Shown piece after piece: positions 19,240-56,720 of a stretch of 64,000 nucleotides of DNA; position 1 is the stretch's first letter, and each line of letters opens with the position of its first letter. The position numbers and the translations under genes are program-made. Under the pieces are notes generated by a model. It worked only from the letters and a program-made list of their open reading frames with translations, did no database searches and had not been told where the DNA came from. Origin of the DNA: Alphaproteobacteria bacterium (GTDB taxonomy: Bacteria; Pseudomonadota; Alphaproteobacteria; JASGCL01); NCBI GenBank assembly GCA_965203915.1, contig OZ241918.1:268613-332612 (forward strand), read 5' to 3'.

Positions 19240-19758
19240 ATGACCGATAAAAAATTACCCGCCGAAGCATCACCACCATCATCGCCCCAGTTGTCGCATG
19301 TAACCCCAAGCGGGAAGGCGGCGATGGTCGACGTATCGCAAAAACCCGAAACCGCCCGCATGGCGCGCGCCATGGCACGGGTGGTGATGAAACCCGAAAC
19401 CATTATCGCCATCAAAAATAATAATATAAAAAAGGGCGATGTTTTAACCGTTGCCAAATTGGCGGGCATCAACGGTGCCAAAAAAACATTCGACCTTATT
19501 CCATTGTGCCACCCTTTGGCTTTATCCTACATCGATGTTGATGCAATAATTGACGGCGACCAAGCGGTGGTGATTACCGCCATAACCAAAACATTTGGCC
19601 GCACGGGGGTAGAGATGGAGGCCATGACCGCGGTTAGCGTGGCCGCCCTCACCCTTTACGACATGGTAAAAGCCATCGACAAAACCGCCACCATCACCGA
19701 CATAAAATTGTTGGAAAAATCGGGCGGCAAGTCGGGGCATTCATTATATGAGCCCTAA
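19240..19758 (+). CDS. moaC: Cyclic pyranopterin monophosphate synthase MoaC.
   Basis: LSHVTPSGKAAMVDVSQKPETAR...KGDVLTVAKLAGINGAKKTFDLIPLCHPL...GVEMEAMTAVSVAALTLYDM. Confidence 0.9.
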   Translation: MTDKKLPAEASPPSSPQLSHVTPSGKAAMVDVSQKPETARMARAMARVVMKPETIIAIKNNNIKKGDVLTVAKLAGINGAKKTFDLIPLCHPLALSYIDVDAIIDGDQAVVITAITKTFGRTGVEMEAMTAVSVAALTLYDMVKAIDKTATITDIKLLEKSGGKSGHSLYEP

Positions 19759-19885
19759 CGCTGACGCTACTTGAGGGCGGGTTCTGCCCTAACGCTTCGT
19801 TGCTTCAGGGCGCATTATATTAAGCCCTATCGCTGACGCTACTTGCTAGGCGTTGCCTAGAACCAAGCTTTTACCGCTTCTGGGC
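19750..19885. repeat. Mosaic palindromic repeat element (module A, gccctaacgctgacgctacttgagggc-like, x3, plus module B, ctaggcgttgcctagaaccaagcttttaccgcttctgggctt). The moaC stop codon lies inside the element.
   Basis: Shares modules with the copies at 22655-22810, 24885-24990, 41497-41665, 45362-45400 and 56402-56720. Confidence 0.8.
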
Positions 19886-19940
19886 TTCGGGGGTAATTAT
19901 TTTATTGCTATCCTAGGACGAATCTTTTTATGGTTGGGGA

Positions 19941-20624
19941 ATGACGGGACAAAAACCACAAGCGGAAACAAAACCACAAGGGGAAGTGCAAACCAAGGCG
20001 CAAGGGGCGGGGGCGACCATCATCACCAGCTTGGATGGTTATCTTAGCTGGCTAAAGAAAATTCGTAGTGAAACCCCTTGGACAAAATCTGCATATCGTG
20101 GGGTGGGGTGGGGGGAAGACACCATAGAAAAATTTAAAAACCTGCCAAAATGTTTGTGGAATGGCAAGGGATATGAAGAAAAATATAACTTGCTACAGAT
20201 GCAAAAAGATTTGTTGGCGGAATTTCGTATGGCGGGTCATAGCAAAGACAAAAAACCTGATTTAGAATTATTGGCGGATATTCAACATGTCGAACCCCGC
20301 ACCTGCTTTATTGATTATAGCTTAAATCCCTTGGTGGCGTTGTATTTTGCCTGCCTTGATGATAAAACCAATGGCTTGGTGATAGCTAATGATATTGATG
20401 CAGAATATTTTCGTAATGTGACTATAGATGATATTGATAAAAAAATAGATGATTTTTTTATTGAGAAAGCAAAAGTAGCAGACAATATCGTGTCGCCAGA
20501 ATATCAAAGCAATAAAAAATATTCTTTAGTGAAAGCTTTGCCATGGGTTTGGCAATTACCCACCGCCGACCACCCACCACCCACGCATGATAGCGCAACA
20601 GGCGATAGTGTTGTTTGGTCATAA
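19941..20624 (+). CDS. FRG-domain protein (hypothetical).
   Basis: LADIQHVEPRTCFIDYSLNPLVALYFAC resembles the FRG-domain core (QHyGlPTrLLDwT...AlyFA). The ORF starts just after the repeat element. Confidence 0.5.
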   Translation: MTGQKPQAETKPQGEVQTKAQGAGATIITSLDGYLSWLKKIRSETPWTKSAYRGVGWGEDTIEKFKNLPKCLWNGKGYEEKYNLLQMQKDLLAEFRMAGHSKDKKPDLELLADIQHVEPRTCFIDYSLNPLVALYFACLDDKTNGLVIANDIDAEYFRNVTIDDIDKKIDDFFIEKAKVADNIVSPEYQSNKKYSLVKALPWVWQLPTADHPPPTHDSATGDSVVWS

Positions 20625-21639
20625 CATACCAGATTATGATGAATATTGTTTTATTAACCAAGATAAGAAAAAAGTAATAAGCAATCAATTGGAAGAATTA
20701 TTTGCTATCGATGGCAATAGGCTATTTCCTGATTTTGATGGTCGTGCTAAATATATTGTTGTTATCAAAGACGCCAAATATTATTTTAAACAGGCTAATA
20801 AATTTCTTGAACAAATGGCTTATGAAGAAGCCATCAAGGATTATGATAGGGCGATAGAATTGAACCCGCAATCTGCCAATATCTATAGCAATCGTGGCGT
20901 GGCAAAGAGAAACCTTGGTCATTATGAAGAAGCCATCAAGGATTATGACAAGGCGATAGAATTGAACCCGCAATCTACCGCTGTCTATGTTGTTAATCGT
21001 GGTGATGCGAAGGGCAAACTTGGTCGTCACAAAGAAGCCATCAAGGATTTTGAAGAAGCAATAAGAATAGACCCGCAATATGCCGACGCTTATATTAATC
21101 GTGGCGTGGCGAAGGGCAACCTTGGTCATCACGCAGAAGCCATCAAGGATTATGATGAGGCGATAGAATTAAACCCGCAATATGCCGAAGTCTATGTTAA
21201 TCGTGGCAATATGAAGGACGAACTTGGTAGTTATGACCAAGCCATCAAAGATTATGATAGGGCGATAGAAATAAATCCGCAATATGCCGAAGCCTATATT
21301 AATCGTGCCACTGTGAAGGGTAAACTTGGTCATTATGAAGAAGTCCTCAAAGACTTGGATAAGGCAATAGAAATAAACCCGCAAGATGCCGAAGCTCATT
21401 ATAATCGTGGCTTGGCGAAGGTTGGTCTTAAGCTATATGAAGAAGCCATCAAAGATTATGATAGGGCGATAGAATCGAACCCGCAATTTGCCATGGCCTA
21501 TAATAATCGTGGCTTGCTAAAACAGGATTTGGCGAAGCAGGAAAGGGCGAAGGGTAATGAAGAGCGGGCGCAGGAATTAGGAATATCCGCCGAAGAGGAT
21601 CTTAAAAAACATCGCGAATTGCTCAATGAGCAAAGATAA
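20587..21639 (+). CDS. Tetratricopeptide-repeat protein. About 8 TPR units are encoded by near-identical 102-bp tandem repeats.
   Basis: Repeated AIKDYDRAIELNPQYAEAYINRGVAKGNLGHYEE units; the nucleotide-level repeats are almost identical. Confidence 0.8.
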   Translation: MIAQQAIVLFGHNIPDYDEYCFINQDKKKVISNQLEELFAIDGNRLFPDFDGRAKYIVVIKDAKYYFKQANKFLEQMAYEEAIKDYDRAIELNPQSANIYSNRGVAKRNLGHYEEAIKDYDKAIELNPQSTAVYVVNRGDAKGKLGRHKEAIKDFEEAIRIDPQYADAYINRGVAKGNLGHHAEAIKDYDEAIELNPQYAEVYVNRGNMKDELGSYDQAIKDYDRAIEINPQYAEAYINRATVKGKLGHYEEVLKDLDKAIEINPQDAEAHYNRGLAKVGLKLYEEAIKDYDRAIESNPQFAMAYNNRGLLKQDLAKQERAKGNEERAQELGISAEEDLKKHRELLNEQR

Positions 21640-22196: not shown

Positions 22197-25100
22197 CTAG
22201 CAGAAAGCCTTAAGCAGGGTTTTGCTGGTGGCGACCATTTGGTCGCGGTTGCGGTTGGCGAAATGAAAAATAATTTTTTCGGTGGTGGTTTTGCCGTTTG
22301 TTTCTTTTATCATGCGTGCCTTTTTTTCTTTTAACAATGTTAACAATTTATCGGGGTTTTTGACTTGGTTGTTGTAAAACATGACGCTGGTGCTGTGGGG
22401 CGATATTTTCAATTCGGTCACCCCCGCGGCGTAACATAATTGTTTTAATTCAATCACCGCCAACAGGTTTTTTGTTTCGGGTGGTATAACGCCAAAACGG
22501 TCGGTCAATGATTCCTCGATATTTTTTAAATTTTTTTCATCCACCGATTCCGACAATTCTTTGTATAATGCCAACCGCACCATGTCGTCGGGAATATAAT
22601 CTTCGGGTATGGCAACCGCCAAGGGCAAAACAATATGCGGCGACCAATCACGCAAGATGTTTGTCCTATCGCTGACGCTACTTGAGGGCAAAATATTGGC
22701 CCTATCGCTAACGCTGCTTGCTAGGCTTCGCCTAGAACCAGACTTTACAGCTTCTAGGCTTGAGGGGACATTATCATTCGCCCCACCTTTTTCCCCTACC
22801 GCTTCGCTGCTCGAGGGCGCGCGGGTGATTTCCAAATCTTTGGCGGATAATTTGGCAATTTCTGCCATCACCATTTTTTGGTATAGTTCAATGCCGACCT
22901 CCCTCACATGGCCCGATTGTTCTTCGCCCAACAAATTGCCCGCCCCCCGCATATCCAGGTCGTGGCTGGCAAGCAAAAACCCCGCCCCCAAGTGGCTTAA
23001 ATCATCCAACAATTCTAATCTTTTTTTGGCATTTTTTGTTATGACTTTATCTTTGGGGTAAGTGATAAAACAATAACCCTGGCGGTTGCCACGCCCCACC
23101 CGCCCGCGTAATTGATACAATTGCGCCAACCCAAATTGGTCGCCGTGAAAAATAATCATGGTGTTGACATTGGGCAAATCCAAACCGCTTTCAATGATAT
23201 TGGTCGACAACAACCCATGATATTTCCCGTCGGCAAAATCGGTCATGGCTTGGTCAATATCCTCGCTCGGCATTTGGCCATGGGCCATGGTGATATTCAT
23301 ATCGGGAATAAGTTCGTGCAATGTTTTGTGAATGGTCGCCAATTGGTTAACCCGCGGTGCCACCAAAAAAATTTGCCCGCCGCGCGCCATTTCGTTGGCG
23401 ATAACCCGTTTCAAATCAAACGGGTTTAAATGCGCCACCATGGTTTTAATCGGCAACCGCCCAGGCGGCGGCGTGGCGATAAGCGACAGATCCTTGATAC
23501 CATGCAACGACAATTGCAAACTGCGCGGTATGGGGGTGGCACTCATCGATAACAAATGAACATTTTTTGCCAATTCGCGGGCGCGTTCTTTTTGTTTAAC
23601 GCCGAAGTGATGTTCCTCATCCACCACCACCAGTCCCAAATTTTTTGGCGCGATGGAACGGTGCAACAAACCATGGGTGCCGATAACAATATCAACCCCC
23701 CCCCGCGACAATTCTTCTTTGGTTTTTTTAATATCGCTGGTGGTAACAAAACGCGACATTTGTTTAATACGCACCGCAAAATTTTTAAAACGTTTCACAA
23801 AATGTTGATAATGTTGCCGCGCCAACAATGTCGTGGGAGTGATAACCAAAACCTGTTTGCCCGCCATCACCGCGCAAAAACTGGCGCGCAACGCAACCTC
23901 GGTCTTGCCAAAACCAACATCGCCGCAAATCAATCGGTCCATCGGGCGTTCCTGCGCCAAATCATTTTTGACGATATTGATGGCTTGCTCCTGGTCGCGC
24001 GTTTCGGGGTATGGAAACAATGACGCAAATTCTAAATAATCGCTGTCTTTGGGTATTAAAGATTCCGCCTTAATCGTTTGGCGCAAAGCGGCGTTGCGCG
24101 CCAACTTGGCCGCCAATTCTTTTATCCGCGCGCGGGTTTTGGCCACGCGGGCTTGCCAATCGGCCGAACCCAATTTATCCAATATATTATCCAACGGCGG
24201 CGCGGGGTCGGGCAAATCGCCGTAACGCTGTAACCTATCCAAATTTTCTATCGGCAAATATAATTTGTCGCCACCGCGATAACTTAACGACACGCAATCG
24301 TGAATTTGCCCGCCCGCGGTAATGGGTTTTAACCCCAAAAATTGTCCAATGCCATAATCCAAATGGGTAATCAAATCGCCTTTTTTTAAAGTGGTAATAT
24401 CCTTGATTAATTTTTCGATGGTCGATTTGCTGTTTTTGCCAGTAAGGGGCGGCGCCCATTGAAATTCCACCTGAAAAATATCGTGGTCGGTAATAATATC
24501 AATATTATTATTTTCGCCGCGCCAACTTTCGCCATGTTGCAATGGCAACACCGCCAGCAAAATTTTTTTTACGCCATCTTCTATTACCTCATCTATATTT
24601 TTTTTGTTTTCTGGGGTCGACCTATTGGCTTCCAAAACAATCACGGGCGGCAATGTATCATCGGTCAATAATTTTTGCCAACGGTGCAGGCTGGCGATGT
24701 TATGCGCGGCTATCAAAATACTATGCGGTGATTTTTTTATCATCGCCAACAATTTTTCTTGGAATGTTTCGTCGGGCGCGTCGGCGTTATTTTTTGCACC
24801 CAACACGGCGTTGTTCACCGCCCGTCGCGCCTGAACCACGTGGGTGGTAATAAATTCTTGCCAATTGGGCATGTTATTTTCTCCCATCGCTTCGCCGCTT
24901 GCTAGGCTTCGCCTAGAACCAGACTTTACAGCTTCTAGGCTTGGGGGCATGTTATTTCCCCCCATCGCTTCACTGCTTAAGGGTGCGGTATGGGACGAGG
25001 CAAGGCGACCAGCGGGCAGGGGAACGACGGGCATTGAGGTAGCGGATGTAAGATGGGCAGCCTCATTCATTTTTTCATGGATGCAAAAAAAATCTTTTAT

Positions 25101-26558: not shown

Positions 26559-26634
26559 TGGTAGGCCTGGCAGGAATCGAACCTGCGACCAAACCGTTAT
26601 GAGCGGTCCGCTCTGACCCCTGAGCTACAGGCCT
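26559..26634 (-). tRNA. tRNA-Met (anticodon CAT). Elongator-type acceptor stem; tRNA-Ile2 (lysidine) cannot be excluded.
   Basis: Reverse complement AGGCCTGTAGCTCAGGGGTCAGAGCGGACCGCTCATAACGGTTTGGTCGCAGGTTCGATTCCTGCCAGGCCTACCA: 7-bp acceptor, D-arm GCTC/GAGC, anticodon loop CTCATAA, GTTCGATTC T-loop, encoded CCA. Confidence 0.85.
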
Positions 26635-26694: not shown

Positions 26695-27000
26695 TTATTT
26701 TATAATATAAAATATTTCATCGAATTCTATCGGGTCGAAAAGCCCCAGGTAACGCCGACCATCTGTTTTGCCGCTGGCTAAATAACAATTGCCTGGGGTT
26801 AACTGCACGCGTTTTACATTGATACGATTGCTCAAAACATTAATAAGGTCGCGCATCGATTGACGTTCGGACGCCTTGCCCTTGCATAGGTAGGATAACA
26901 TTTTGCCTTCTTGGCCAGCCTCCAACTGTTCGCGAGCGGACAGGTTATGCCCGAGGGTGAGGGAAAGGATAAGGGCGAGGCAAATAAAATATTTTTTCAT
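26695..27000 (-). CDS. Small secreted hypothetical protein (101 aa, signal peptide, 3 Cys).
   Basis: MKKYFICLALILSLTLGHNLSA signal-peptide-like N-terminus; good SD context; adjacent to tRNA-Met and the peptide array. Confidence 0.5.
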   Translation of the reverse strand: MKKYFICLALILSLTLGHNLSAREQLEAGQEGKMLSYLCKGKASERQSMRDLINVLSNRINVKRVQLTPGNCYLASGKTDGRRYLGLFDPIEFDEIFYIIK

Positions 27001-27244
27001 GGGTGATTAAGGTTAAGCTAGTCGATAGGTTTTTTTGAGTGGTAAGCCATGATAATGGCATGGGTAAATTGCCTTACGGCATATTGTCAAACCCTGTTAT
27101 TTATAATTTTTATATTATCAAAAATAGCCGCGCGAGTCAAAAGAAAAATCCCTGGCTGCGTAGGATGAAAGGTAATAAAAAAGGCACCTGTTTAAACAAC
27201 AGATGCCTACAAAAAATAAATTTTTTGTTAATGAAAAAAATGAA

Positions 27245-27421
27245 TTACATTTTCATCATTTTTTCGCATTTTTTCATCATTTTTTGGTCAGCGGCACTCA
27301 TGGATGCTTTATCCATTTTCATCATTTTGTCGCAATTTGCTTTGTTGACTTCGCCTTCGCTCGCCATAACAGCCGAGGTAAGAAGCAAGCCAGTGATCAT
27401 GGCGAAAGATAATTTTTTCAT
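27245..27421 (-). CDS. Small secreted Met/Lys-rich two-cysteine peptide, array copy 1 (58 aa: signal peptide + about 38-aa mature peptide).
   Basis: MKKLSFAMITGLLLTSAVMA|SEGEVNKANCDKMMKMDKASMSAADQKMMKKCEKMMKM; AAGGA SD 7 nt upstream; own hairpin terminator downstream. Confidence 0.65.
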   Translation of the reverse strand: MKKLSFAMITGLLLTSAVMASEGEVNKANCDKMMKMDKASMSAADQKMMKKCEKMMKM

Positions 27422-27630
27422 GATTGTTTCCTTTTCTATATATAAATTAGGATGTTGCGATAGGCGAAATTGCCAATCAATCCCCCTATAGGCTAATTTT
27501 AATTTTTTTGCAATATAATTTTGAATCGTTTGCTTGTTTTCCTATAGTATATTTTTGGTTCATAGTATTGGCGAATCTTGCGGTGGTTTGTTCGGGGCAA
27601 GGTTGGTCGGCGCGCCAAAAAATGGAGCAA

Positions 27631-27664
27631 TAAAAAAGGCATCTGTTTAGAAAAACAGATGCCT
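27631..27664 (-). terminator. Rho-independent terminator of peptide-gene copy 2 (perfect 12-bp stem aggcatctgttt/aaacagatgcct followed by a T-run on the minus strand).
   Basis: Identical copies at about 28088-28121 and 28545-28578. Variants at about 27176-27208 (copy 1), 28911-28947 and 29378-29413. Confidence 0.75.
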
Positions 27665-27701
27665 TCAAAAAATAAACTTTTTTGTTAATCAAAAAAACGA
27701 A

Positions 27702-27878
27702 TTACATTTTCATCATTTTTTCGCATTTTTTCATCATTTTTTGGTCAGCGGCACTCATGGATGCTTTATCCATTTTCATCATTTTGTCGCAATTTGCTTT
27801 GTTGACTTCGCCTTCGCTCGCCATAACAGCCGAGGTAAGAAGCAAGCCAGTGATCATGGCGAAAGATAATTTTTTCAT
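27702..27878 (-). CDS. Small secreted Met/Lys-rich two-cysteine peptide, array copy 2 (identical to copy 1; the 457-bp unit is repeated).
   Basis: Identical 457-bp unit (ORF-track duplicates 27682-27948 and 27943-28149 match copies 1 and 3). Confidence 0.65.
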   Translation of the reverse strand: MKKLSFAMITGLLLTSAVMASEGEVNKANCDKMMKMDKASMSAADQKMMKKCEKMMKM

Positions 27879-28158
27879 GATTGTTTCCTTTTCTATATAT
27901 AAATTAGGATGTTGCGATAGGCGAAATTGCCAATCAATCCCCCTATAGGCTAATTTTAATTTTTTTGCAATATAATTTTGAATCGTTTGCTTGTTTTCCT
28001 ATAGTATATTTTTGGTTCATAGTATTGGCGAATCTTGCGGTGGTTTGTTCGGGGCAAGGTTGGTCGGCGCGCCAAAAAATGGAGCAATAAAAAAGGCATC
28101 TGTTTAGAAAAACAGATGCCTTCAAAAAATAAACTTTTTTGTTAATCAAAAAAACGAA

Positions 28159-28335
28159 TTACATTTTCATCATTTTTTCGCATTTTTTCATCATTTTTTG
28201 GTCAGCGGCACTCATGGATGCTTTATCCATTTTCATCATTTTGTCGCAATTTGCTTTGTTGACTTCGCCTTCGCTCGCCATAACAGCCGAGGTAAGAAGC
28301 AAGCCAGTGATCATGGCGAAAGATAATTTTTTCAT
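28159..28335 (-). CDS. Small secreted Met/Lys-rich two-cysteine peptide, array copy 3 (identical).
   Basis: Identical 457-bp unit. Confidence 0.65.
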   Translation of the reverse strand: MKKLSFAMITGLLLTSAVMASEGEVNKANCDKMMKMDKASMSAADQKMMKKCEKMMKM

Positions 28336-28615
28336 GATTGTTTCCTTTTCTATATATAAATTAGGATGTTGCGATAGGCGAAATTGCCAATCAATCCCCC
28401 TATAGGCTAATTTTAATTTTTTTGCAATATAATTTTGAATCGTTTGCTTGTTTTCCTATAGTATATTTTTGGTTCATAGTATTGGCGAATCTTGCGGTGG
28501 TTTGTTCGGGGCAAGGTTGGTCGGCGCGCCAAAAAATGGAGCAATAAAAAAGGCATCTGTTTAGAAAAACAGATGCCTTCAAAAAATAAACTTTTTTGTT
28601 AATCAAAAAAACGAA

Positions 28616-28774
28616 TTACATTTTTTGGCATTTTGCCATTGTTTTTTGTTGCGCAGGAGTCAATGAGGCTTTGTCCATTTTCATCAACTTATCGCATTTG
28701 GCGTTCATGTTGCCAGCAGAAGCGCTAGCGGCAAGAACCAAAGCAATAGCGATCATGAGAGATATTTTTTTCAT
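28616..28774 (-). CDS. Small secreted two-cysteine peptide, diverged array copy 4 (52 aa).
   Basis: MKKISLMIAIALVLAASASA|GNMNAKCDKLMKMDKASLTPAQQKTMAKCQKM; own terminator hairpin at about 28911-28947 downstream of copy 5. Confidence 0.6.
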   Translation of the reverse strand: MKKISLMIAIALVLAASASAGNMNAKCDKLMKMDKASLTPAQQKTMAKCQKM

Positions 28775-29007
28775 GAGGTATACTCCTTAGTTTTGTTAAG
28801 ATTGTTACGACCGACGGGATTGCCAGGCGTAGGAATGATGTAAAGCAATTGTTGAGGCGTAGCAACTTGTATTATCGCTAACTTGCTACCAATTATAAAA
28901 AATGGCTAAATAAAAAAGACATCTGTTTTAATAAAAAACAGATGTCTTTAAAAATAAATTTTTTTTATTGTGCGGGCGTCAATAGTGTCTTACCCATTTG
29001 TGTCAGT

Positions 29008-29238
29008 CTATTGCATGTGATGTCGATGTCGATGTTGGTGTCGCCAGCGGCAAGAATCATGGCAACAACAATCACGGTCAATCATTTCTTCGCATTTTTC
29101 TATTGTTTTTTGTTGTGCGGGCGTTAATAAATCTTCGTCCATTTTCATTAACCTATCGCATTGGGCTTTCATGTTGTCAGCCGAAGCATTGGCGACAAGA
29201 ACCAAAGCAATAGCTGGCATGAGAGATAATTTTTTCAT
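29008..29238 (-). CDS. Small secreted two-cysteine peptide, diverged copy 5. The C-terminus reads through into a degenerate remnant of another copy (Cys/His-rich tail).
   Basis: MKKLSLMPAIALVLVANASA|DNMKAQCDRLMKMDEDLLTPAQQKTIEKCEEM followed by IDRDCCCHDSCRWRHQHRHRHHMQ; the 28960-29100 region is a decayed copy. Confidence 0.5.
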   Translation of the reverse strand: MKKLSLMPAIALVLVANASADNMKAQCDRLMKMDEDLLTPAQQKTIEKCEEMIDRDCCCHDSCRWRHQHRHRHHMQ

Positions 29239-29445
29239 GAGGTATATTTCTTATAGTTTTGCTAAGATTATGACGAATGACAAGTTTATCATTCGGATAA
29301 GTTATGCAAGTTAATTTTTGAAGCACAGCAAGTTATGCTATCACTGATTTACTAACCATTATAAAATATTGGAAAATAAAAAAGGCATCTGTTTTAAGAA
29401 AAAACAGATGCCTTCAAAAATAAACTTTTTGCTAGAAGTTAAATA

Positions 29446-29631
29446 TTATAGTTTTGCTTTTTTGCAATCTTCTAAATATTTTTTATCTTCTGGAGTCATG
29501 GTGGTTGTGCCAGCAGTATCCAATAGTTTCAATTGGTCGCACTTGGCTTTGTCAACCTTGGCAGCTTGGGCAGCAACCGCGGATGAAGTGATAATAAAGG
29601 TCAGAGCTAAAAGAGCAAAGATTTTTTTCAT
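29446..29631 (-). CDS. Small secreted two-cysteine peptide, diverged copy 6 (61 aa).
   Basis: MKKIFALLALTFIITSSAVA|AQAAKVDKAKCDQLKLLDTAGTTTMTPEDKKYLEDCKKAKL; same C-D-K/Q-L-x-x-x-D ... K/D-C-K/E-K architecture. Confidence 0.55.
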   Translation of the reverse strand: MKKIFALLALTFIITSSAVAAQAAKVDKAKCDQLKLLDTAGTTTMTPEDKKYLEDCKKAKL

Positions 29632-30065
29632 GTTCGTTTCTCCTTTCATGAGTAAAAACGATTGTAAATAAAAAATGTTCCAAACATTATTGTCTGGAAC
29701 ATTTTCGAATATAAACTCTTTTCTTTTTAAGGTCAAGCAAAGTAGGAAATTTTTTTTATTAAATCGAAATTTTAAAAAAATTTTGCATTTTTAGACAAAA
29801 AATAGATATTTATTCTTGAATTTCCTCGATTCGCTACTTTCTATTTACTTAATTACTATTTGCGCTGTATTTTGCATTTTATTTCTGTTTTTGCTAGGTT
29901 TTTTATCGGTTTTTTATTGGTGATATTACGCGTTTGGATTACGCTTATGGGTGGCGCGCGAAGACAAATTTATGTAGCGAATGGCAAAATGGTGCGGGTT
30001 GGCAACCATGAAAGGGTGGGCGTTGGAAAAAGCCACGCACACAATATTTTTATAGTGTAAAAAAA

Positions 30066-39087: not shown

Positions 39088-41505
39088 ATGAGCGCCGATA
39101 AAAAATCACCCGATAAAAAAATGCGCGACGCCAGCGGTCATAACCCCGCTCACAATCCTGCTTATAACCATGGGCGCGGGCAAGCGGTGGAGGGCGACAT
39201 GGACGCGCCCAAAAATGCCACCGAACAATTACGGATGGAGGCCATAGCCTATCACAAGCAAAAACCAGCGGGAAAATTGCGGGTGGTGGCGTCGAAACCA
39301 TTGAACAGCCAGCGCGATCTGTCCTTGGCCTATTCGCCAGGGGTCGCCGCCGCTTGCGAGGAAATTGTGAAAGATCCCCTGAATGTTTCTGACATGACGG
39401 CGCGTGGTAATTTGGTGGCGGTTATATCGAACGGCACGGCGGTGTTGGGTTTGGGCGATATTGGCCCCCTGGCCAGCAAACCCGTGATGGAGGGGAAGGC
39501 GGTGTTGTTTAAAAAATTTGCCGACCTTGATGTTTTTGATATTGAGATAGAAGAGAAAGACCCAGAAAAATTAATCACAATTATCAAAAGCCTAGAGCCA
39601 ACATTTGGCGGCATCAACCTGGAGGATATCAAGGCCCCCGAATGTTTTGTTATCGAACAACGGTTAAAAAAGGAAATGAAAATTCCGGTGTTCCATGACG
39701 ACCAACATGGCACCGCCATCATCGCGGGGGCGGCGATAAAAAATGGTCTGGAAGTAATGAAGAAAGATATAGGGTCGGTGAAAATTGTGGCGTCGGGCGC
39801 GGGGGCGGCGGCGTTATCTTGTTTGCATTTTTTGATAAGCCTGGGGGCGAAGAAAGAAAATATTTGGGTATGCGATAAAGAAGGTTTGGTTTGGGCGGGG
39901 CGTAACAAGGGGATGGATGAGTTCAAACAACAATTTGCCCGCGCCGATGTGAAGGAAGATAGAAACTTGGCATCGGTTATCAAGGACGCCGATATTTTCT
40001 TGGGGTTGTCTTCAGGCAAGGTGGTAACGGGCGATATGGTGAAATCGATGGCGAAAAACCCGATGATATTGGCGTTGGCCAATCCCGAACCCGAAATTCG
40101 CCCCGAAGAAATAGAAAAAGTTCGCCAAGACGCCATTATCTGCACGGGGCGGTCGGATTATCCCAACCAGGTCAATAATGTTCTCTGTTTTCCATTTTTG
40201 TTTCGCGGCGCGTTGGATGTTGGGGCGACAGAAATTAACGAACCCATGAAGCAAGCCGCGTCGATGGCCATTGCCGAATTGGCCAAGCAAGCGGTCGAAG
40301 AAAAAACATTACGCGCCTATGGCTTGACCGAATTATCTTTCGGTAAAAATTATATCATTCCCAAACCGTTGGATGAGAGGTTGATTGTTGCGGTTTCGTC
40401 GGCAGTGGCGGAGGCGGCCATGAAGACGGGCGTTGCGACCCGCCCCATCGCCGACATAAAACAATATCGCGAACAATTGGCGGGCATGACCACCCGCACC
40501 CACCAAATTATGCGCCCCATCAATGTTGCGGCACGCCAGTCGGACAAGCGGATAGTTTACGCCGAGGGGGAAAACCCACGGATATTATCCGCCCTGCCGA
40601 TTATTATTCAAGAAAATTTTGCGCGCCCGATATTGGTGGGCCGCCCCAAGGTGATAGAAGATCGGATCAAAAAATTAAATTTGAATTTAACCTTGGGCAA
40701 AGACGTAGAGATTTGCGACCCCGAGCAAGACGATAGGTTCCATGCCTATTGGACGGAATATCATCAGCATTTGGGGCGGTCAGGCGTGTCGCCCGAATAT
40801 GCCAAAACGATGGTGCGGACGTCGAACACCGTTATTGGGTCGTTGATGGTTAAACGCGGCGAAGCCGATGGTTTGATATGCGGCACCATTGGGGTTTTTC
40901 ATCGCCATTTAAAACATGTTCGCAATATTTTGGGGGTGAATGAAAAATACAAAGACATGCACAGTCTTTATATGTTGGTGCTGGAAACATTTGGTCAACC
41001 CACCCTGCCGCTGTTTTTTACCGACACCCATGTTTCGCACAACCCATGCGAAGAGGAATTGGAAGAAATGACATTGATGGCGACCGATGTGATGAAATTG
41101 TTTGGCATAACGCCAAAGGTTGCGTTGCTTTCCCATTCTAACTTTGGTTCGTCTGAATCGGATTCGGCGAAAAAAATGCGCCGTGCGGTGGCGCGTTTGA
41201 AAAAATCTTGCCAATTTGAGGTCGAGGGCGAAATGCACCCCGACACCGCGCTTGATGAAACCATTCGCGCCAATTTTTTGATGGATAATCGATTAAAGGG
41301 CGCGGCGAATTTGATGGTTTTCCCCAACCTGGATGCTGCCAATATTTGCTACAACATGGTGAAGATGGTGGCGGCCGAGGGGATTTCGACAGGACCAATT
41401 TTGATGGGTTGTAACCATGTGGCGCATATCATGACGCCCGCCGCCACCACCCGCGGCATCATCAACATGACGGCCTTCACCGCCGCCGAAGCGGCCAACC
41501 GCTAG
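39088..41505 (+). CDS. maeB: NADP-dependent malic enzyme (malic enzyme + phosphotransacetylase-like domain; MaeB type). The stop codon lies inside a palindromic repeat element.
   Basis: Malic enzyme motifs (VISNGTAVLGLGDIGPLASKPVMEGK, VASGAGAAALSC) followed by the PTA-like C-terminal half; 805 aa. Confidence 0.88.
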   Translation: MSADKKSPDKKMRDASGHNPAHNPAYNHGRGQAVEGDMDAPKNATEQLRMEAIAYHKQKPAGKLRVVASKPLNSQRDLSLAYSPGVAAACEEIVKDPLNVSDMTARGNLVAVISNGTAVLGLGDIGPLASKPVMEGKAVLFKKFADLDVFDIEIEEKDPEKLITIIKSLEPTFGGINLEDIKAPECFVIEQRLKKEMKIPVFHDDQHGTAIIAGAAIKNGLEVMKKDIGSVKIVASGAGAAALSCLHFLISLGAKKENIWVCDKEGLVWAGRNKGMDEFKQQFARADVKEDRNLASVIKDADIFLGLSSGKVVTGDMVKSMAKNPMILALANPEPEIRPEEIEKVRQDAIICTGRSDYPNQVNNVLCFPFLFRGALDVGATEINEPMKQAASMAIAELAKQAVEEKTLRAYGLTELSFGKNYIIPKPLDERLIVAVSSAVAEAAMKTGVATRPIADIKQYREQLAGMTTRTHQIMRPINVAARQSDKRIVYAEGENPRILSALPIIIQENFARPILVGRPKVIEDRIKKLNLNLTLGKDVEICDPEQDDRFHAYWTEYHQHLGRSGVSPEYAKTMVRTSNTVIGSLMVKRGEADGLICGTIGVFHRHLKHVRNILGVNEKYKDMHSLYMLVLETFGQPTLPLFFTDTHVSHNPCEEELEEMTLMATDVMKLFGITPKVALLSHSNFGSSESDSAKKMRRAVARLKKSCQFEVEGEMHPDTALDETIRANFLMDNRLKGAANLMVFPNLDAANICYNMVKMVAAEGISTGPILMGCNHVAHIMTPAATTRGIINMTAFTAAEAANR

Positions 41506-41665
41506 GCTTCGCCTAGGTGCTGCGCACCGCAACTTTCTAGGCTGCGCCTAGAACCAAGCTTGTTATTTTGGAGTCGAGGGCGAAATGCACCCCGACACCG
41601 TGCTTGATGAAAGGCTTTTTCTCTCTCCATCGCCAAACAGTTCGGTTCTAGGGCTTGCCCTAGCT
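41497..41665. repeat. Repeat cluster at the maeB 3' end. Forward module B (ctaggcttcgcctag...ctaggctgcgcctagaaccaagcttg) and an inverted module copy (ggttctagggcttgccctag) flank a duplicated 45-bp fragment of maeB.
   Basis: 41568-41612 (ggagtcgagggcgaaatgcaccccgacaccgtgcttgatgaaa) is near-identical to maeB 41216-41260. Confidence 0.8.
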
Positions 41666-44617: not shown

Positions 44618-44664
44618 TCAACATGAAGATACATCATGTTGAGGGAGCGGGAAAAAAAATAATC

Positions 44665-45366
44665 ATGACGCAAAAATTAATCATTGCCAATTGGAAAATG
44701 AATTTGCCAATCGGTGGCATAGCGGCGTTTGCAGAAAAAATAACCAAGCCGCGGCCTAGCAACCTTATCATTGCGCCGCCTTACCCTTTTTTATCGCAAG
44801 TACGTGGCCAGGGTTTTCGCATCGCCGCCCAAGATGTTTCGGCCAACGATAACAAAAATGGCAAGGGGGCATTCACGGGGGAAGTTGCCGCCGACATGTT
44901 GATGCAACTTGGCGTTCAGCATTGCATCGTGGGGCATTCGGAACGGCGGCAATATTATCATGAAGACCATGAATTGTTGGCAAAAAAAATAATTCAATTG
45001 CTTAATCACCACATCATTCCCGTTTTTTGTGTGGGCGAACAACGCGCCGATTATAAAGACAAAAAAACCAACGAAGTTTTATCGGCGCAGTTAAAAGCCC
45101 TCAACGGGTTTAAAGGAAAAGAAATTATCATTGCTTATGAACCCGTGTGGGCGATTGGCACGGGGGCGGTGGCGACCACCGACGATATGGTGCGGGTGCA
45201 TGATTATATAAAGGGGCGTTTGGGCGGCGAGGTAAAGGTTTTGTATGGCGGGTCGGTTAATGCCAGCAACGCCGCGGCAATTTTATCGTTACGCGAGGTT
45301 GATGGATTATTAATCGGCGGCGCCAGTTTAAAGGCGGATGAGATGATGAAGATATTGGCGGGATAG
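44665..45366 (+). CDS. tpiA: Triosephosphate isomerase. The stop codon TAG falls within a partial repeat module.
   Basis: IANWKMN, GHSERR, IAYEPVWAIGTG, GGASLK. Confidence 0.9.
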   Translation: MTQKLIIANWKMNLPIGGIAAFAEKITKPRPSNLIIAPPYPFLSQVRGQGFRIAAQDVSANDNKNGKGAFTGEVAADMLMQLGVQHCIVGHSERRQYYHEDHELLAKKIIQLLNHHIIPVFCVGEQRADYKDKKTNEVLSAQLKALNGFKGKEIIIAYEPVWAIGTGAVATTDDMVRVHDYIKGRLGGEVKVLYGGSVNASNAAAILSLREVDGLLIGGASLKADEMMKILAG

Positions 45367-45400
45367 AAAACCTGACTTTACCTCTTCTAGGCTTGTGCCT
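45362..45400. repeat. Partial module-B repeat (atagaaaacctgactttacctcttctaggcttg) overlapping the tpiA stop codon.
   Basis: Aligns to cctagaaccagactttacagcttctaggcttg from the mfd copies. Confidence 0.6.
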
Positions 45401-45524
45401 TTTTTATAAAAAATAGGCATGGCAATTTTAGAGATTTAAATAAAAGAATTGACAAATAACTAAGAATTGGATAGGGTTAAGAGGATATACCCATCCCTGC
45501 GGTTTAGAGCAATCTAAACGAGGG

Positions 45525-46472
45525 GTGGGGTTTTTTATATGGTGGCTGTATTTTATCATGGGACAAGGTTATAACAACTCTTCAAAACTAGATTACACCA
45601 AACCTTTTTTATCAGTTGATGGCCAGCTCGCGCTTATAAAATCAAGGGGACTTGTGGTAGGTGATGACAATGAAGCAAAACATTATCTTAAAACTATAGG
45701 TTATTATCGTTTAAGCGGTTATTGGTATCCTTTCCGTAAAGAAGCTAGCGAATATTTTATAAATGGCACAAAATTTTCTGATATTGTTGAATTGTATGCT
45801 TTTGATAAAAAATTAAGGCTGATTGTTTTAGATGCGATTGAAAGAATAGAGGTTGCTGTTAGGGTAGCTATGGTTTTGTCTTTAGGCAAAGATAATCCTT
45901 TTATACATTTAAGTAGTAATATATTTTTTAATGAAAATAATTACAAAGAATGGAAAGAACATTTTGATAAAAAATATAAATCTTCTAAGCAACCATGGTT
46001 TATGACCGCAAATAAAAAATATAAAGAATTGCCAATTTGGATGGTGATAGAAACATGGGATTTTGGGTTGTTATCTTATTTCTTTTCGGGTTTAAATTCT
46101 AAATATAAAGATATTATAAGTGGCAATTATGGTGTGGATCCTACTGTATTAAAAAATTGGTTAGCAAGTATCAATGAGATAAGAAACATATGCGCTCATC
46201 ATCAACGATTATGGAATTTTTCATTAAACAACGTAGTAAAAACACCAAAAAACTTACCTGATATGGATAATATTAGAACCAATCAAGCGGCAAGAGTCAA
46301 AATATACGCTACATTAATCATCATACAATTTTTATTAAAAAAAATTAATCCCACCACAAAATGGCATCAAAGATTAAAAGAACATATGAATCAATTTCCT
46401 AATAATCCTAACATTCATATTCAGCAAGCTGGCTTTCCTCAAGCTTGGCATAAAGAAAAAATTTGGCAATAA
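45525..46472 (+). CDS. Abortive-infection phage-resistance protein, AbiD/AbiF family (Abi_2).
   Basis: YRLSGYWYPFR and IRNICAHHQRLWN hallmark motifs. The gene is markedly AT-rich with Asn/Lys/Ile-rich codon usage, unlike its flanking genes. Confidence 0.8.
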   Translation: MGFFIWWLYFIMGQGYNNSSKLDYTKPFLSVDGQLALIKSRGLVVGDDNEAKHYLKTIGYYRLSGYWYPFRKEASEYFINGTKFSDIVELYAFDKKLRLIVLDAIERIEVAVRVAMVLSLGKDNPFIHLSSNIFFNENNYKEWKEHFDKKYKSSKQPWFMTANKKYKELPIWMVIETWDFGLLSYFFSGLNSKYKDIISGNYGVDPTVLKNWLASINEIRNICAHHQRLWNFSLNNVVKTPKNLPDMDNIRTNQAARVKIYATLIIIQFLLKKINPTTKWHQRLKEHMNQFPNNPNIHIQQAGFPQAWHKEKIWQ

Positions 46473-46528
46473 ATAAGCAAATTAATTTTTTCTTGCCGCG
46501 TCATGGATAGATTTTATCATGATGAAAT

Positions 46529-46984
46529 CTATCTTTTCCCCGCAAAAAAATCCTTCATCAATTGTTCGCAATCGTGGCGCAAAATACCGTCTATAACCTC
46601 TGGCCTGTGGTGGCAATGGGGGTTGGCAAAAACCCGGGCGCCCGATAATACCCCGCCCGATTTTTCGTCATAACCGCCAAATACCAATGTTTTTATCCGC
46701 ACGGTCGATATCGCCGCCGCGCATAGGGCGCAAGGTTCAAGCGTCACCAACAATGTATGGTCCGATAAAAACTTCTCACCGCATTGCTTGATGGCTTTAT
46801 CAATAACCAACATTTCGGCATGGGCCAGGGCATTGCTTGTTTCTTCAACACGGTTATGGTCAACCGCCACCACCGCGCCATTTTTATCAATCATCATGGC
46901 GGCCACGGGCACCTCGCCGCGCTCCGCCGCGGATTGGGCGTGGGGCAACAATTGGCGCATCAAATGGATGTAATCAATAACCAT
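46529..46984 (-). CDS. tadA: tRNA-specific adenosine deaminase.
   Basis: HAEMLVIDKA and LVTLEPCALCAAAI CMP/dCMP-deaminase zinc motifs. Confidence 0.88.
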   Translation of the reverse strand: MVIDYIHLMRQLLPHAQSAAERGEVPVAAMMIDKNGAVVAVDHNRVEETSNALAHAEMLVIDKAIKQCGEKFLSDHTLLVTLEPCALCAAAISTVRIKTLVFGGYDEKSGGVLSGARVFANPHCHHRPEVIDGILRHDCEQLMKDFFAGKR

Positions 46985-54847: not shown

Positions 54848-56401
54848 ATGTTACATACCATTACCAATCAAGAAGAATTTTTGAACCATTACAACAATGG
54901 GCAAGATGCCTTGTTGTGTTGTCAATTATCTATCGACACCATCACCCCCGTGGCGGCGGTGATGAAATTGCAACATGCTTCGCGCCATTTGTTTTTGCTG
55001 GAATCGGTTGAACAGGGCAAAACCCGCGCCCGTTATTCTTTTTTGGGATGGCAACCGATATTGTTGTGGGAAGCCCGCGGCGGCGAAGTGTTTCATCGCG
55101 ATGGTGACGAAGCCCCATGGCAAAAAATGGCAAGCAAAGAAAAAACCAACCCGCTGGATGACCTGCATGATATTCTCAATCGTCATGCTATCCATTTTCC
55201 TGCGGGGTTGCCCGCGGCGGCCTCGGGGTTTTTTGGTTTTTTAAGTTACGACGCGGTGCAGATGATTGAAAAAATCCCACCGCATCGCGAAGACCCACAT
55301 CATTTGCCCGATGGTCGGTATTTTTTGCCCAAGCAAATATTGATATTTGATAATGCCACGGACAAGGCTTCCTTGGTCGTGCGTTGCCAATATAAAAAAG
55401 ACACCACGGCGCAGGATGCTTTGCTTGCCACCCAAAAAACCATCAATGACACGCTGGAAACCTTGCGCCAATCATTGCCCGCCAACACGGCGCGCGCCCA
55501 CGCGGCGGTTGCCGCTCCGCAACAACCCAAACACCTAACGCCTGAGGGCGACTACCTAACCGCCGTGAAAAAAACCATCGACTATATCAAGGCGGGGGAT
55601 ATTTTCCAAGCAGTCATCAGCCAAGTTTTTGAATATGATAACCCGCATGGTTCGCCCCTTAATTTTTATCGCGCCTTACGCGCCACCAACCCCGCGCCCT
55701 ACATGTTTTTCTTTCAATGGGAAGATTTTGCCTTCGCGGGGGCCAGCCCCGAAACCCTGGTCAAGGTTGAAGATAAAAAAATGTCAGTCTACCCCATTGC
55801 GGGCACGCGCCGCCGTGGCACCACCGAGGATGAAGATAAAAAATTGGCAGAAGAATTGTTGGCCGACCCGAAAGAACGCGCCGAACATTTGATGTTGCTC
55901 GACCTGGGGCGGAATGATGTCGGCAGGGTAGCCGAAATAGGAACGGTCAAGGTTGTTCAAGAATTTCAAGTCGAGCGTTATGCGTTTGTTATGCATTTGG
56001 TGTCGGAAGTCATGGGGCAATTGGCAAAAGATAAAAGCAGTTTGCAAGCATTATGCGCGGGCATGCCCGCGGGCACCGTGTCGGGCGCGCCAAAAATTCG
56101 CGCCATGGAAATTATTGCCGAATTGGAAAAAACCCGCCGCGGATTATACGCGGGGGCGGTGGGATATTTTTCCAGCAAATTAAACAGCGACAAAACAAAA
56201 GAAGATTTTGTCAACCAAGCCGACATGGACCATTGCATTGCCTTGCGCTGCGCCTTGCTCAAAGCCGACAAAGTCACCATTCAAACGGGGGCGGGTATTG
56301 TTTACGATTCGGTGCCCGAAAAAGAACAGGAAGAATGTTTGAACAAAGCGCGTGCATTATTCAAAGCCTTCGACCGTGCTCACGAATTCTCAGGCAATTA
56401 A
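54848..56401 (+). CDS. trpE: Anthranilate synthase component I.
   Basis: LLESVEQGKTRARYSFLG, chorismate-binding core GAVGYFS..., ...IQTGAGIVYDSVPEKEQEECLNKA. Confidence 0.92.
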   Translation: MLHTITNQEEFLNHYNNGQDALLCCQLSIDTITPVAAVMKLQHASRHLFLLESVEQGKTRARYSFLGWQPILLWEARGGEVFHRDGDEAPWQKMASKEKTNPLDDLHDILNRHAIHFPAGLPAAASGFFGFLSYDAVQMIEKIPPHREDPHHLPDGRYFLPKQILIFDNATDKASLVVRCQYKKDTTAQDALLATQKTINDTLETLRQSLPANTARAHAAVAAPQQPKHLTPEGDYLTAVKKTIDYIKAGDIFQAVISQVFEYDNPHGSPLNFYRALRATNPAPYMFFFQWEDFAFAGASPETLVKVEDKKMSVYPIAGTRRRGTTEDEDKKLAEELLADPKERAEHLMLLDLGRNDVGRVAEIGTVKVVQEFQVERYAFVMHLVSEVMGQLAKDKSSLQALCAGMPAGTVSGAPKIRAMEIIAELEKTRRGLYAGAVGYFSSKLNSDKTKEDFVNQADMDHCIALRCALLKADKVTIQTGAGIVYDSVPEKEQEECLNKARALFKAFDRAHEFSGN

Positions 56402-56720
56402 TTCGCCCTACCGCTGACGCTACTTGAGGGCAACTAGGGCAAGCCCTAGAACCAGGCTTGTTGCCACCAGTGGTAAAAAAGTATATTTTAACTTATTAAG
56501 AATTTTTTTGGTAATTCATTTGCCCATTTTTATTGCGCTATCACTTCGTTGCTTGAGGGCGATAGGTTTCGCCCTAGAAACGAGATTTTCAGCTTTGAGA
56601 ATAAAGCCCTGAAGAAATTGTAAGTTGCGGTGCGCAGCACCCAGGATTTTCCGCTTTGAGAATAAAGCCCTGAAGAAATTGTAAGTTGCGGTGCGCAGCA
56701 CCTAGGCAAAGCCTAGTTGC
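56402..56720. repeat. Repeat cluster immediately after the trpE stop. Module A + ctagggcaagccctagaacc (56405-56462); a second composite copy (56536-56720) containing a 61-bp tandem duplication (56584-56644 / 56645-56705) and the ctaggcaaagcctag palindrome followed by a T-run.
   Basis: gttgcggtgcgcagcacc is the reverse complement of ggtgctgcgcaccgcaac in the maeB-end copy. ctagggcaagccctagaacc is the reverse complement of 41643-41662. Confidence 0.8.

Follow-up and report, generated by a model that had tools for sequence, protein, structure and literature searches.

The stretch of DNA analysed here, called the window throughout, covers 64,000 nucleotides (nt) of contig OZ241918.1 (positions 268,613 to 332,612, assembly GCA_965203915.1, Alphaproteobacteria), and our subject is a gene of the Abi_2 abortive-infection family, here abi, together with the short leader that precedes it. 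The gene stands alone between tpiA and a TadA-like deaminase gene, as had been described in an original prediction made from the DNA letters. tpiA occupies 44623-45366 on the plus strand (PF00121; TIGR00419 above cutoff), and the deaminase gene, convergent to abi, occupies 46529-46984 on the minus strand; its best NCBIfam match was TadA (E 5e-30), below the curated cutoff, and the name tadA is used below only in this sense. In the program-made list of open reading frames (ORFs) a single ORF was found between the two genes, at 45525-46472 (+), with a GTG start and 315 amino acids (aa), and it contains the motifs YRLSGYWYPFR and CAHHQRLWN by which the family had been recognised. The predicted length of 315 aa holds for this frame as read from its GTG, but that GTG is not conserved, and the most likely start appears to be the ATG at 45558, which gives a protein of 304 aa and a gene at 45558..46472 (+), stop codon included. 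The ATG is favoured because in the best genome match, L001 (an alphaproteobacterial metagenome-assembled genome (MAG), 525-kb contig, ~95% nt identity), the frame is broken upstream of it by a 2-nt indel in a T-run, and because, in the 304-aa form, the match to the family profiles and to the solved structure PDB 8VZ6 begins only near residue 8.

The product is a predicted toxin of the AbiD/AbiF family, of the HEPN ribonuclease (RNase) type. It matched the Pfam Abi_2 profile (PF07751) over positions 1-184 of 184 with E 5.5e-54 and 183.7 bits, against a cutoff of 25.6, the PADLOC AbiD profile over positions 3-273 of 277 (E 3.5e-69, 231.6 bits) and an abortive-infection family of PHROGs (E 1.5e-63). 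The matching solved structure was 8VZ6, PbAbiF, which aligned full-length over residues 8-304 (E 2.8e-43). An AlphaFold model of the 304-aa protein, computed with 40 homologues, reached a predicted local distance difference test score (pLDDT) of 94.1, and when it was compared with the PDB by Foldseek the only significant neighbour was 8vz6_A, entitled "PbAbiF dimer bound to ncRNA" (noncoding RNA), with template modelling scores of 0.84/0.85, a root-mean-square deviation of 2.9 Å and E 1.1e-17. The putative HEPN catalytic motif R-N-I-C-A-H (R209...H214), encoded at 46182..46199 (+), was aligned to R210...H215 of PbAbiF, and its R, N, A and H are invariant across 40 homologues; a double variant R210A+H215A of PbAbiF is reported to be inactive (PMC12373285). 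The alignments and the model thus show a full-length structural homologue of the PbAbiF HEPN RNase toxin with an intact Rx4H motif, and on these grounds we regard the assignment to the AbiD/AbiF family as practically certain. More than 2400 homologues were found at E<=1e-10, as well as 491 plasmid records and 86 phage records; no homologue exceeded 91% identity, the value for L001, and looking up the exact sequence of the 315-aa GTG form gave no match. The abi module is an ordinary member of a widespread known family.

The gene had been described as far more AT-rich than its neighbours and heavy in asparagine, lysine and isoleucine (N+K+I), and the measurements agreed. Its GC content is 0.299, its GC content at third codon positions (GC3) 0.223 and its N+K+I fraction 0.27, against 0.475±0.035, 0.528±0.055 and 0.186 in the 31 other genes of the window (z -5.0, -5.6 and +3.3, respectively). 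The composition of abi is thus a strong outlier, consistent with horizontal acquisition. A relative carrying the gene at the same place with host-like composition would have spoken for a native origin; L001 does carry it at the same site, with the same GC3 of 0.223. The two coding sequences (CDS) are 94.8% identical in nt, with a synonymous divergence (dS) of 0.12 and a ratio of nonsynonymous to synonymous divergence (dN/dS) of 0.315; dS in the flanking genes is 0.08-0.27, and dN/dS in the neighbours 0.03-0.18. Since the gene occupies the same site in L001 and is still AT-rich there, the comparison indicates that it was acquired before the split of the window lineage from L001, that is, not recently, and that it has not been ameliorated since; the value of 0.315 indicates purifying selection. 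The next relative, L002 (TpiA 61% identical), keeps the order yggS-ssb-infA-ychF-tpiA, and 3' of tpiA it has udg, gshB, pgi and mutL, synteny being lost exactly at this junction. The synteny check that had been proposed gave therefore a partial answer: L001 has abi at the same site, but an empty site with tpiA adjoining tadA was not found in the relatives compared, since L001 carries the gene and synteny is lost in L002.

That abi is an inactive relic of an old transfer appeared to us highly improbable. Its dN/dS is weakly more relaxed than that of the neighbours and no obvious Shine-Dalgarno sequence precedes the ATG, both of which would suit a relic; yet two genomes carry the reading frame unbroken and at full length, the catalytic motif is preserved, dN/dS lies well under 1, the leader described below is nearly invariant and the AlphaFold model is highly confident.

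Like abi, each of the three nearest homologues outside this lineage stands alone between housekeeping genes, but at another site: in locus L161, P0002 (57% identity) lies between dapF and leuA, in L163, P0010 (46%) between a divergent rpoZ and rseP, and in L162, P0006 (46%) between a cca/pcnB-like gene and hemF. The abi genes of L161 and L163 are AT-rich as well (GC 0.33 and 0.30, against ~0.50 in their flanks), and more distant relatives are common on alphaproteobacterial plasmids.

Upstream of the gene, a TTGACA-containing promoter-like stretch and a perfect 7-bp hairpin had been pointed out, and both are present. The promoter-like site (45449..45477, +), as read from the sequence, consists of a -35 box TTGACA at 45449-45454, a 17-nt spacer and a weak -10 box TAGGGT at 45472-45477; the arrangement TTGACA-N17-TAnnnT is located at equal distance before the hairpin in L161, L163 and many other homologue loci, and the site would function as a promoter by this resemblance. 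A consensus promoter/terminator scan, whose rules admit no bulged stems and no weak -10 boxes, called neither the TTGACA site, where the -10 box matches only 3/6 positions, nor the hairpin. The hairpin belongs to a candidate abiF-type small RNA with intrinsic terminator or attenuator (45482..45538, +), proposed from fold, position and conservation. Its outer stem, P1, is formed by CCCAUCCCU/AGGGGUGGG, with 45490-45498 paired with 45521-45529; above it there is a G-CG-G junction with two bulged G, followed by the inner stem UUUAGA/UCUAAA with a GCAA loop (45503-45518). The perfect 7-bp hairpin GTTTAGA-GCAA-TCTAAAC (45502-45519) is the inner part of this interrupted stem of 17 bp. The stem starts 12 nt after the -10 box, a U6 tract follows at 45531-45536, and 21 nt separate the U-tract from the ATG. 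The fold of 45490-45529 has a free energy (dG) of -24.5 kcal/mol with z -5.0, and 0/200 shuffles were as good. No tandem repeat array was found in 45340-45560.

From the promoter to the U-run, 87/88 nt are identical to L001, against 90-96% in other intergenic regions and 79% in the 3' spacer of abi; the stem-loop itself is identical and the U-tract is 2 nt longer there. A leader more conserved than the CDS was considered as a general property and set aside, as it holds only against L001, the values against L161 being 66-76% for the leader and 68% for the CDS. The leader of L161 has the same architecture, CCCACCCCC-G-CG-G-stem-loop-stem-CG-GGGGGUGG-U7, with an inner stem of different sequence, one U-A to C-G exchange in P1 and compensatory changes, and L163 has an analogous GC-rich hairpin before its 46% homologue. 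In both loci TTGACA is followed by a G/C-based hairpin and this by a U-run just before the ATG.

The form of the hairpin, which is that of an intrinsic terminator, admits a second explanation of the leader: abi could be a solitary defence gene, Abi toxin-like and lacking an RNA partner, and hairpin and U-tract could be a cis-acting terminator or insulator against read-through from tpiA, or an attenuator. The control of lactococcal abiD1 by weak transcription and translation (PMC13064643) offers a parallel. The role of tpiA terminator was rejected as the principal explanation. The hairpin accompanies abi into unrelated contexts; two loci, L163 and L165, have a divergent gene upstream, and there the hairpin cannot be the terminator of a neighbour. 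Moreover, in the window the TTGACA is placed after tpiA and before the hairpin, which would therefore terminate the transcript of the cassette itself. By these comparisons the hairpin is linked to abi and not to tpiA.

The AbiD/F group is now regarded as a two-component system of a protein and a short upstream RNA (PMC13064643; also PMC12373285). For the AbiF of Prevotellaceae and that of Clostridioides difficile, PMC12373285 and PMC12737573 describe the ncRNA upstream as an antitoxin: it binds the toxin, whose HEPN site it blocks, and the system is classed as type III toxin-antitoxin (TA)-like. According to the same papers and PMC13064643, this RNA ends in a Rho-independent terminator, allows little read-through to abiF and acts in cis and in trans. 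The RNAs linked to abi were compared across the family. In a sample of 80 metagenomic loci encoding 33-41% identical homologues, a recognisable hairpin was present in most, and two classes were distinguished. The first is canonical RF03085, the Rfam abiF family, with CCCGCC-A-AGC-CUCU...-GCU-CAAAUC-GGCGGG, and it was found in L137, L145, L147, L154, phage phiC2 and the exact PbAbiF locus (L292), where RF03085 scored 58.5 bits for an RNA at 1063-1099, followed by a U-run and by the ATG at 1118, 18 nt after the RNA. The second, group 1, reads AACAC-GGCCNNCCC-CUCU-hairpin-AC-GGGNNGGCC-UUUUC and includes L081-L112, L162, L165, L168 (a Microvirga plasmid, 2435-2489) and L169 (a gut phage-like contig, 724-777). 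Group 1 was not detected by RF03085, either at the gathering threshold or at E<=0.1. Its P1 is 97-98% paired, with double changes in 6-8 of the 9 pairs; 0/500 shuffles reached the observed values, and slid controls gave 31-53% pairing. A mixed MAFFT alignment of all upstream hairpins (A3) yielded no RNAalifold structure, owing to a register shift of one column between subclasses, and the subclass alignments A4 and A6 were used. These results suggest that, of the RNAs associated with Abi_2 genes, no more than a part is represented by the curated Rfam abiF family. Locus L137 carries two tandem abiF-type motifs upstream of one abi gene, at 2555-2603 and ~2665-2712, like the two-motif RCd22 of C. 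difficile.

A model named R1 was built from 15 seeds, among them L161 and L163, and with neither the window nor L001. On the 64 kb of the window it gave the hairpin of abi as its sole significant match (23.2 bits, E ~1e-3; next 13.3 bits). In 88 sources, 56 of its 58 matches adjoin an abi gene, 29 of the 58 just upstream in sense orientation and 27 just downstream on the opposite strand; those right before abi on the Microvirga plasmid and the gut phage-like contig scored 46 and 48 bits. In the convergent arrangement, known from loci L090-L131 (for example L100:1985-2035(-), L124:3992-4044(-) and L116:3990-4040(-)), each of the 17 examined carries a TTGACA-type promoter of its own, with a U-run that adjoins the abi stop codon or overlaps it. 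The convergent RNA is thus an independent gene that has no attenuator role there, which supports action in trans and speaks against a purely cis-acting leader. Several abi genes with a convergent RNA follow an hsdS-like coding sequence. A scan of viral_contigs with the window-type hairpin pattern was also made; it gave >120 matches, none of which adjoined an abi gene (tblastn), and they were attributed to chance.

Several results weigh against the inclusion of the window hairpin in the abiF RNA family, and so against a role as antitoxin. RF03085 had no match in 45300-45650 at E<=10; with Rfam over the whole window at the gathering threshold and over this segment at E<=10, only tRNAs and noise were obtained, when the positive controls were all matched (phiC2 37.6 bits, the PbAbiF locus with the score given above, L145, L147, L137 and L154). 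A stricter model, R2, built from 30 canonical RNAs of the group-1 variant, scored the hairpin at 13.1 bits (E ~0.5, rank 2), and L161 did no better; the significance obtained with R1 depended on the presence of L161 and L163 in the seed. Two features of the known motif, its near-invariant CUCU loop and a 3' bulge of CAAAU type, are missing from the hairpin, which is predicted as a near-continuous stem with two bulged G; as only three independent examples of its subtype were found, the covariation specific to it, two double changes with respect to L161, is thin. The -10 element is also weak. On the other hand, short covariance models fail across accepted subclasses, RF03085 missing group 1 and R2 missing the Pb RNA (PbAbiFr), and since the models miss accepted classes too, non-detection is weak evidence. 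Taken together, the membership of the hairpin in the abiF-type RNA family is only partly shown by these comparisons. The case for an antitoxin rests on where the hairpin lies and how the locus is laid out, on its conservation in the nearest homologues and on the precedent of a validated antitoxin that is itself a terminator hairpin, and we infer that role by analogy.

The failure with RF03085 and R2, together with the missing single-stranded CUCU and CAAAU elements, is what one would expect of a cis-acting element with no partner function. Against it stand the contexts in which the hairpin accompanies abi, the TTGACA placed before it, the validated PbAbiF antitoxin, which is such a terminator hairpin at the same position, and the 27 matches in which the related RNA is a separate convergent gene and cannot attenuate. 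We judge the cis-acting explanation unlikely, although it keeps some weight. It is also possible, if rather doubtful, that the proteins of the window, L161 and L163 form a small subclade of AT-rich lone-gene AbiF proteins paired with a third, undescribed class of abi-linked RNA. Such a class may be defined by a near-continuous 17-bp stem with a conserved G-CG-G junction, with neither CUCU loop nor CAAAU bulge, and missed by RF03085 and by the model of the commoner variant. If the RNA of this class is the antitoxin, the HEPN site would be inhibited by another geometry than that of PbAbiFr; if it is not, the subclade would control a HEPN toxin by attenuation alone.

Taking into account the protein, its composition and the leader, we propose as the probable reading that the tpiA-tadA interval holds a compact cassette of ~1.03 kb (45449-46472), foreign and AT-rich, which would be a TA/abortive-infection module of AbiD/AbiF type with an RNA-based mechanism. 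The horizontally acquired single-gene island of the original prediction is thereby retained for its foreign composition, and the term single-gene is probably wrong, the upstream RNA being a likely second component. The steps of the mechanism are taken over because characterised members of the family behave so. Transcription from the promoter of the cassette would mostly stop at the hairpin and U-tract, giving an abundant RNA of ~50 nt and little read-through abi mRNA. The small RNA, in excess, would bind the AbiF dimer and block the RNase site (R209/H214), in the manner of a type III-like antitoxin. Once host transcription is halted or the RNA degraded through phage infection or stress, free AbiF would cleave cellular RNA, with growth arrest and abortion of the infection. 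By the same properties the cassette would also be an addiction module, held stably in the chromosome.

This last point leads to another explanation, in which the cassette serves mainly as a selfish addiction element or as an RNase of the stress response, is retained because cells that lose it die, and gives little or no phage defence in this host. No anti-phage activity was shown for the AbiF of C. difficile, for which a role in prophage maintenance is discussed (PMC12373285), the cassette has stably held a single site from a time that precedes the split from L001, and no other defence genes are adjacent to it. Lactococcal AbiD, AbiD1 and AbiF are experimentally anti-phage (PMC13064643), however, and PADLOC and PHROGs place the protein in abortive-infection families; the two roles are, in addition, not mutually exclusive. 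As the chief function, addiction or stress response seems to us improbable.

Among the closest known systems is PbAbiF-AbiFr of Prevotellaceae (PDB 8VZ6; Zilberzwige-Tal et al., Cell 2025, as presented in PMC12737573, PMC12373285 and PMC13064643), whose protein is homologous over its full length at ~29-35% identity; it has the catalytic R/H in common and also has a small G/C-based hairpin with a U-run ~20 nt before the ATG. The RNAs differ in their interior: that of Pb is canonical RF03085, with a 6-bp P1, a 3-bp P2, a CUCUCAACGAU loop and a CAAAUGU bulge, whereas the candidate of the window has the G-CG-G junction between a 9-bp P1 and an inner stem of 6-7 bp, and neither a CUCU loop nor a 3' bulge. 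The hosts also differ, Bacteroidota in one case and Alphaproteobacteria in the other. AbiFCd-RCd22 of the C. difficile prophage phi027/phiC2 (PMC12373285) shares the Abi_2/AbiF toxin with an RNxxAH motif (~27% identity to the protein of the window), and its upstream ncRNA has its own promoter, a Rho-independent terminator and a read-through abi mRNA, with attenuation in cis and binding in trans. RCd22 contains two abiF motifs and a separate terminator in ~100-130 nt, whereas in the window one hairpin would be the terminator itself, in ~50 nt; furthermore, the C. difficile gene lies within a prophage's lysis module and that of the window between chromosomal housekeeping genes.

Lactococcal AbiD, AbiD1 and AbiF belong to the same Abi_2 family and are likewise AT-rich, lone genes with an essential upstream region, and for them the anti-phage function is proven (PMC13064643); their sequences are distant and plasmid-borne in Firmicutes. 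With the classical type III TA systems (ToxIN, AbiQ, CptIN, TenpIN) the order of RNA antitoxin gene, terminator and toxin RNase gene is common, as is the principle that an excess of labile RNA neutralises a stable toxin. Those systems have the ToxN/AbiQ fold and antitoxins in tandem repeats of 34-50 nt processed by the toxin, in contrast to the HEPN/AbiF toxin and the leader with no array described here. As regards the RNA classes, the candidate of the window resembles RF03085 and group 1 in position and orientation, in a G/C-rich P1 that opens CCC...GGG, in the U-run and in a TTGACA few nt upstream, and differs from them in the internal loops.

The surroundings of the cassette contain some further elements. 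A partial repeat module had been proposed as its left boundary, and the repeat is real: directly after the tpiA stop, 45369..45395 (+) is a partial copy (27 nt, 24/27 matching) of a dispersed repeat of the host, complete at 22736-22762 and 24917-24943; 100 shuffles gave 0 chance matches. The copy is absent from L001 at the same site, and because it is missing there it is not part of the inserted unit; on this comparison it is context. The family to which this fragment belongs contains CTAGGC...GCCTAG palindromes and the motif CGCTGACGCTACTTG, and its dispersed intergenic members, of ~40-65 nt and resembling repetitive extragenic palindromes or miniature inverted-repeat transposable elements (REP/MITE-like), were located at 19737-19899, 22648-22774, 24893-24955, 41502-41590, 56390-56433 and 56622-56716. 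An AT-rich palindrome at 45398-45425 is a possible, weak tpiA terminator (z -1.5, not significant). On the other side, 3' of abi and overlapping the 3' end of the convergent tadA, there is a terminator-like hairpin at 46505..46537 (+), a 13-bp AT-rich stem followed by TTTT (dG -17 kcal/mol, z -3.2); it has no conserved equivalent in L001, whose 3' intergenic region is only 79% identical and contains indels. On both sides of the abi ORF stands an imperfect direct repeat of 18 nt (15/18, with ATTTTATCATG exact), at 45543-45560 and 46504-46521, the first copy spanning the start codon and the second lying 32 nt past the stop, with no counterpart in L001; it is probably due to chance in AT-rich DNA. 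No integrase or transposase appears in the tpiA-tadA interval of the ORF list, and when mobility genes, att sites and a target-site duplication were looked for, this repeat, not conserved in L001, was the sole candidate.

Elsewhere in the window, two regions and one gene deserve mention. An FRG domain (E 1.6e-8) is encoded in the 227-aa ORF at 19941-20624, which PADLOC matched to its candidate defence family PDC-S15 (E 5.5e-12), and the overlapping ORF at 20587-21639 encodes seven TPR repeats on 102-nt tandem DNA repeats, its N-terminus matching the C-terminal end of PDC-S15. This segment, 19941-21639, with a GC3 of 0.37-0.38, is the second most atypical of the window and is flanked by dispersed repeats; it could represent another acquired gene of defence-like type, possibly a single gene divided between two frames. 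The second region, 27160-29430, is a tandem array of five to six units of ~457 nt with a GC of 0.34-0.36; three of the units are 98-100% identical, and each unit contains a 30-nt near-palindrome (87% self-complementary), AAGGCATCTGTTTAGAAAAACAGATGCCTT. The array adjoins a tRNA-Met gene (26559-26634), and small minus-strand ORFs with signal-peptide-like N-termini are located close by at 26695-27000, 29008-29238 and 29446-29736; those of the small ORFs near the array that were tested gave no PADLOC match. Lon (4269-6995) has 908 aa, against ~800 aa in most homologues, and its best local alignments to many of them cover only ~57% of the query, which suggests a lineage-specific insertion as judged from the alignments.

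The genes of the window also bear on the nature of the host, which the original prediction had imagined as possibly an obligate intracellular or symbiotic bacterium. They include clpX, lon, clpP, tig, mfd and mutS for proteolysis, folding and repair, trpC, trpE, folP-folK, ubiB, ubiH and fabF for biosynthesis, and trxB, allantoicase, a Liv-type ABC transporter, bamA and maeB among the others. Lon is 97% identical to that of the L001 MAG, 82-83% to those of other MAGs and 57-67% to those of Stellaceae and Dongia. In this gene content nothing indicates a reduced obligate symbiont and nothing speaks against host association, so that idea found no support in it. A published survey found no abiF/abi_2 in Rickettsiales (PMC12373285), and the presence of abi in a symbiont would be noteworthy only if such a lifestyle were shown.

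With this cassette, the hosts of AbiF-type modules include an uncultured alphaproteobacterial lineage, in which a unit of ~1 kb has evidently been long-lived at a convergent junction of core genes with its foreign composition retained. The system probably has the hairpin as its second component, and current models do not cover the sequence class to which this hairpin belongs. For annotation this means that genes named "Abi family protein" should be read together with their leader of ~100 nt, the functional unit being probably RNA plus protein and the hairpin not a generic terminator. The partial coverage of the abi-linked RNAs by the Rfam abiF family bears, finally, on the evolutionary path that has been proposed from AbiF to Cas13.

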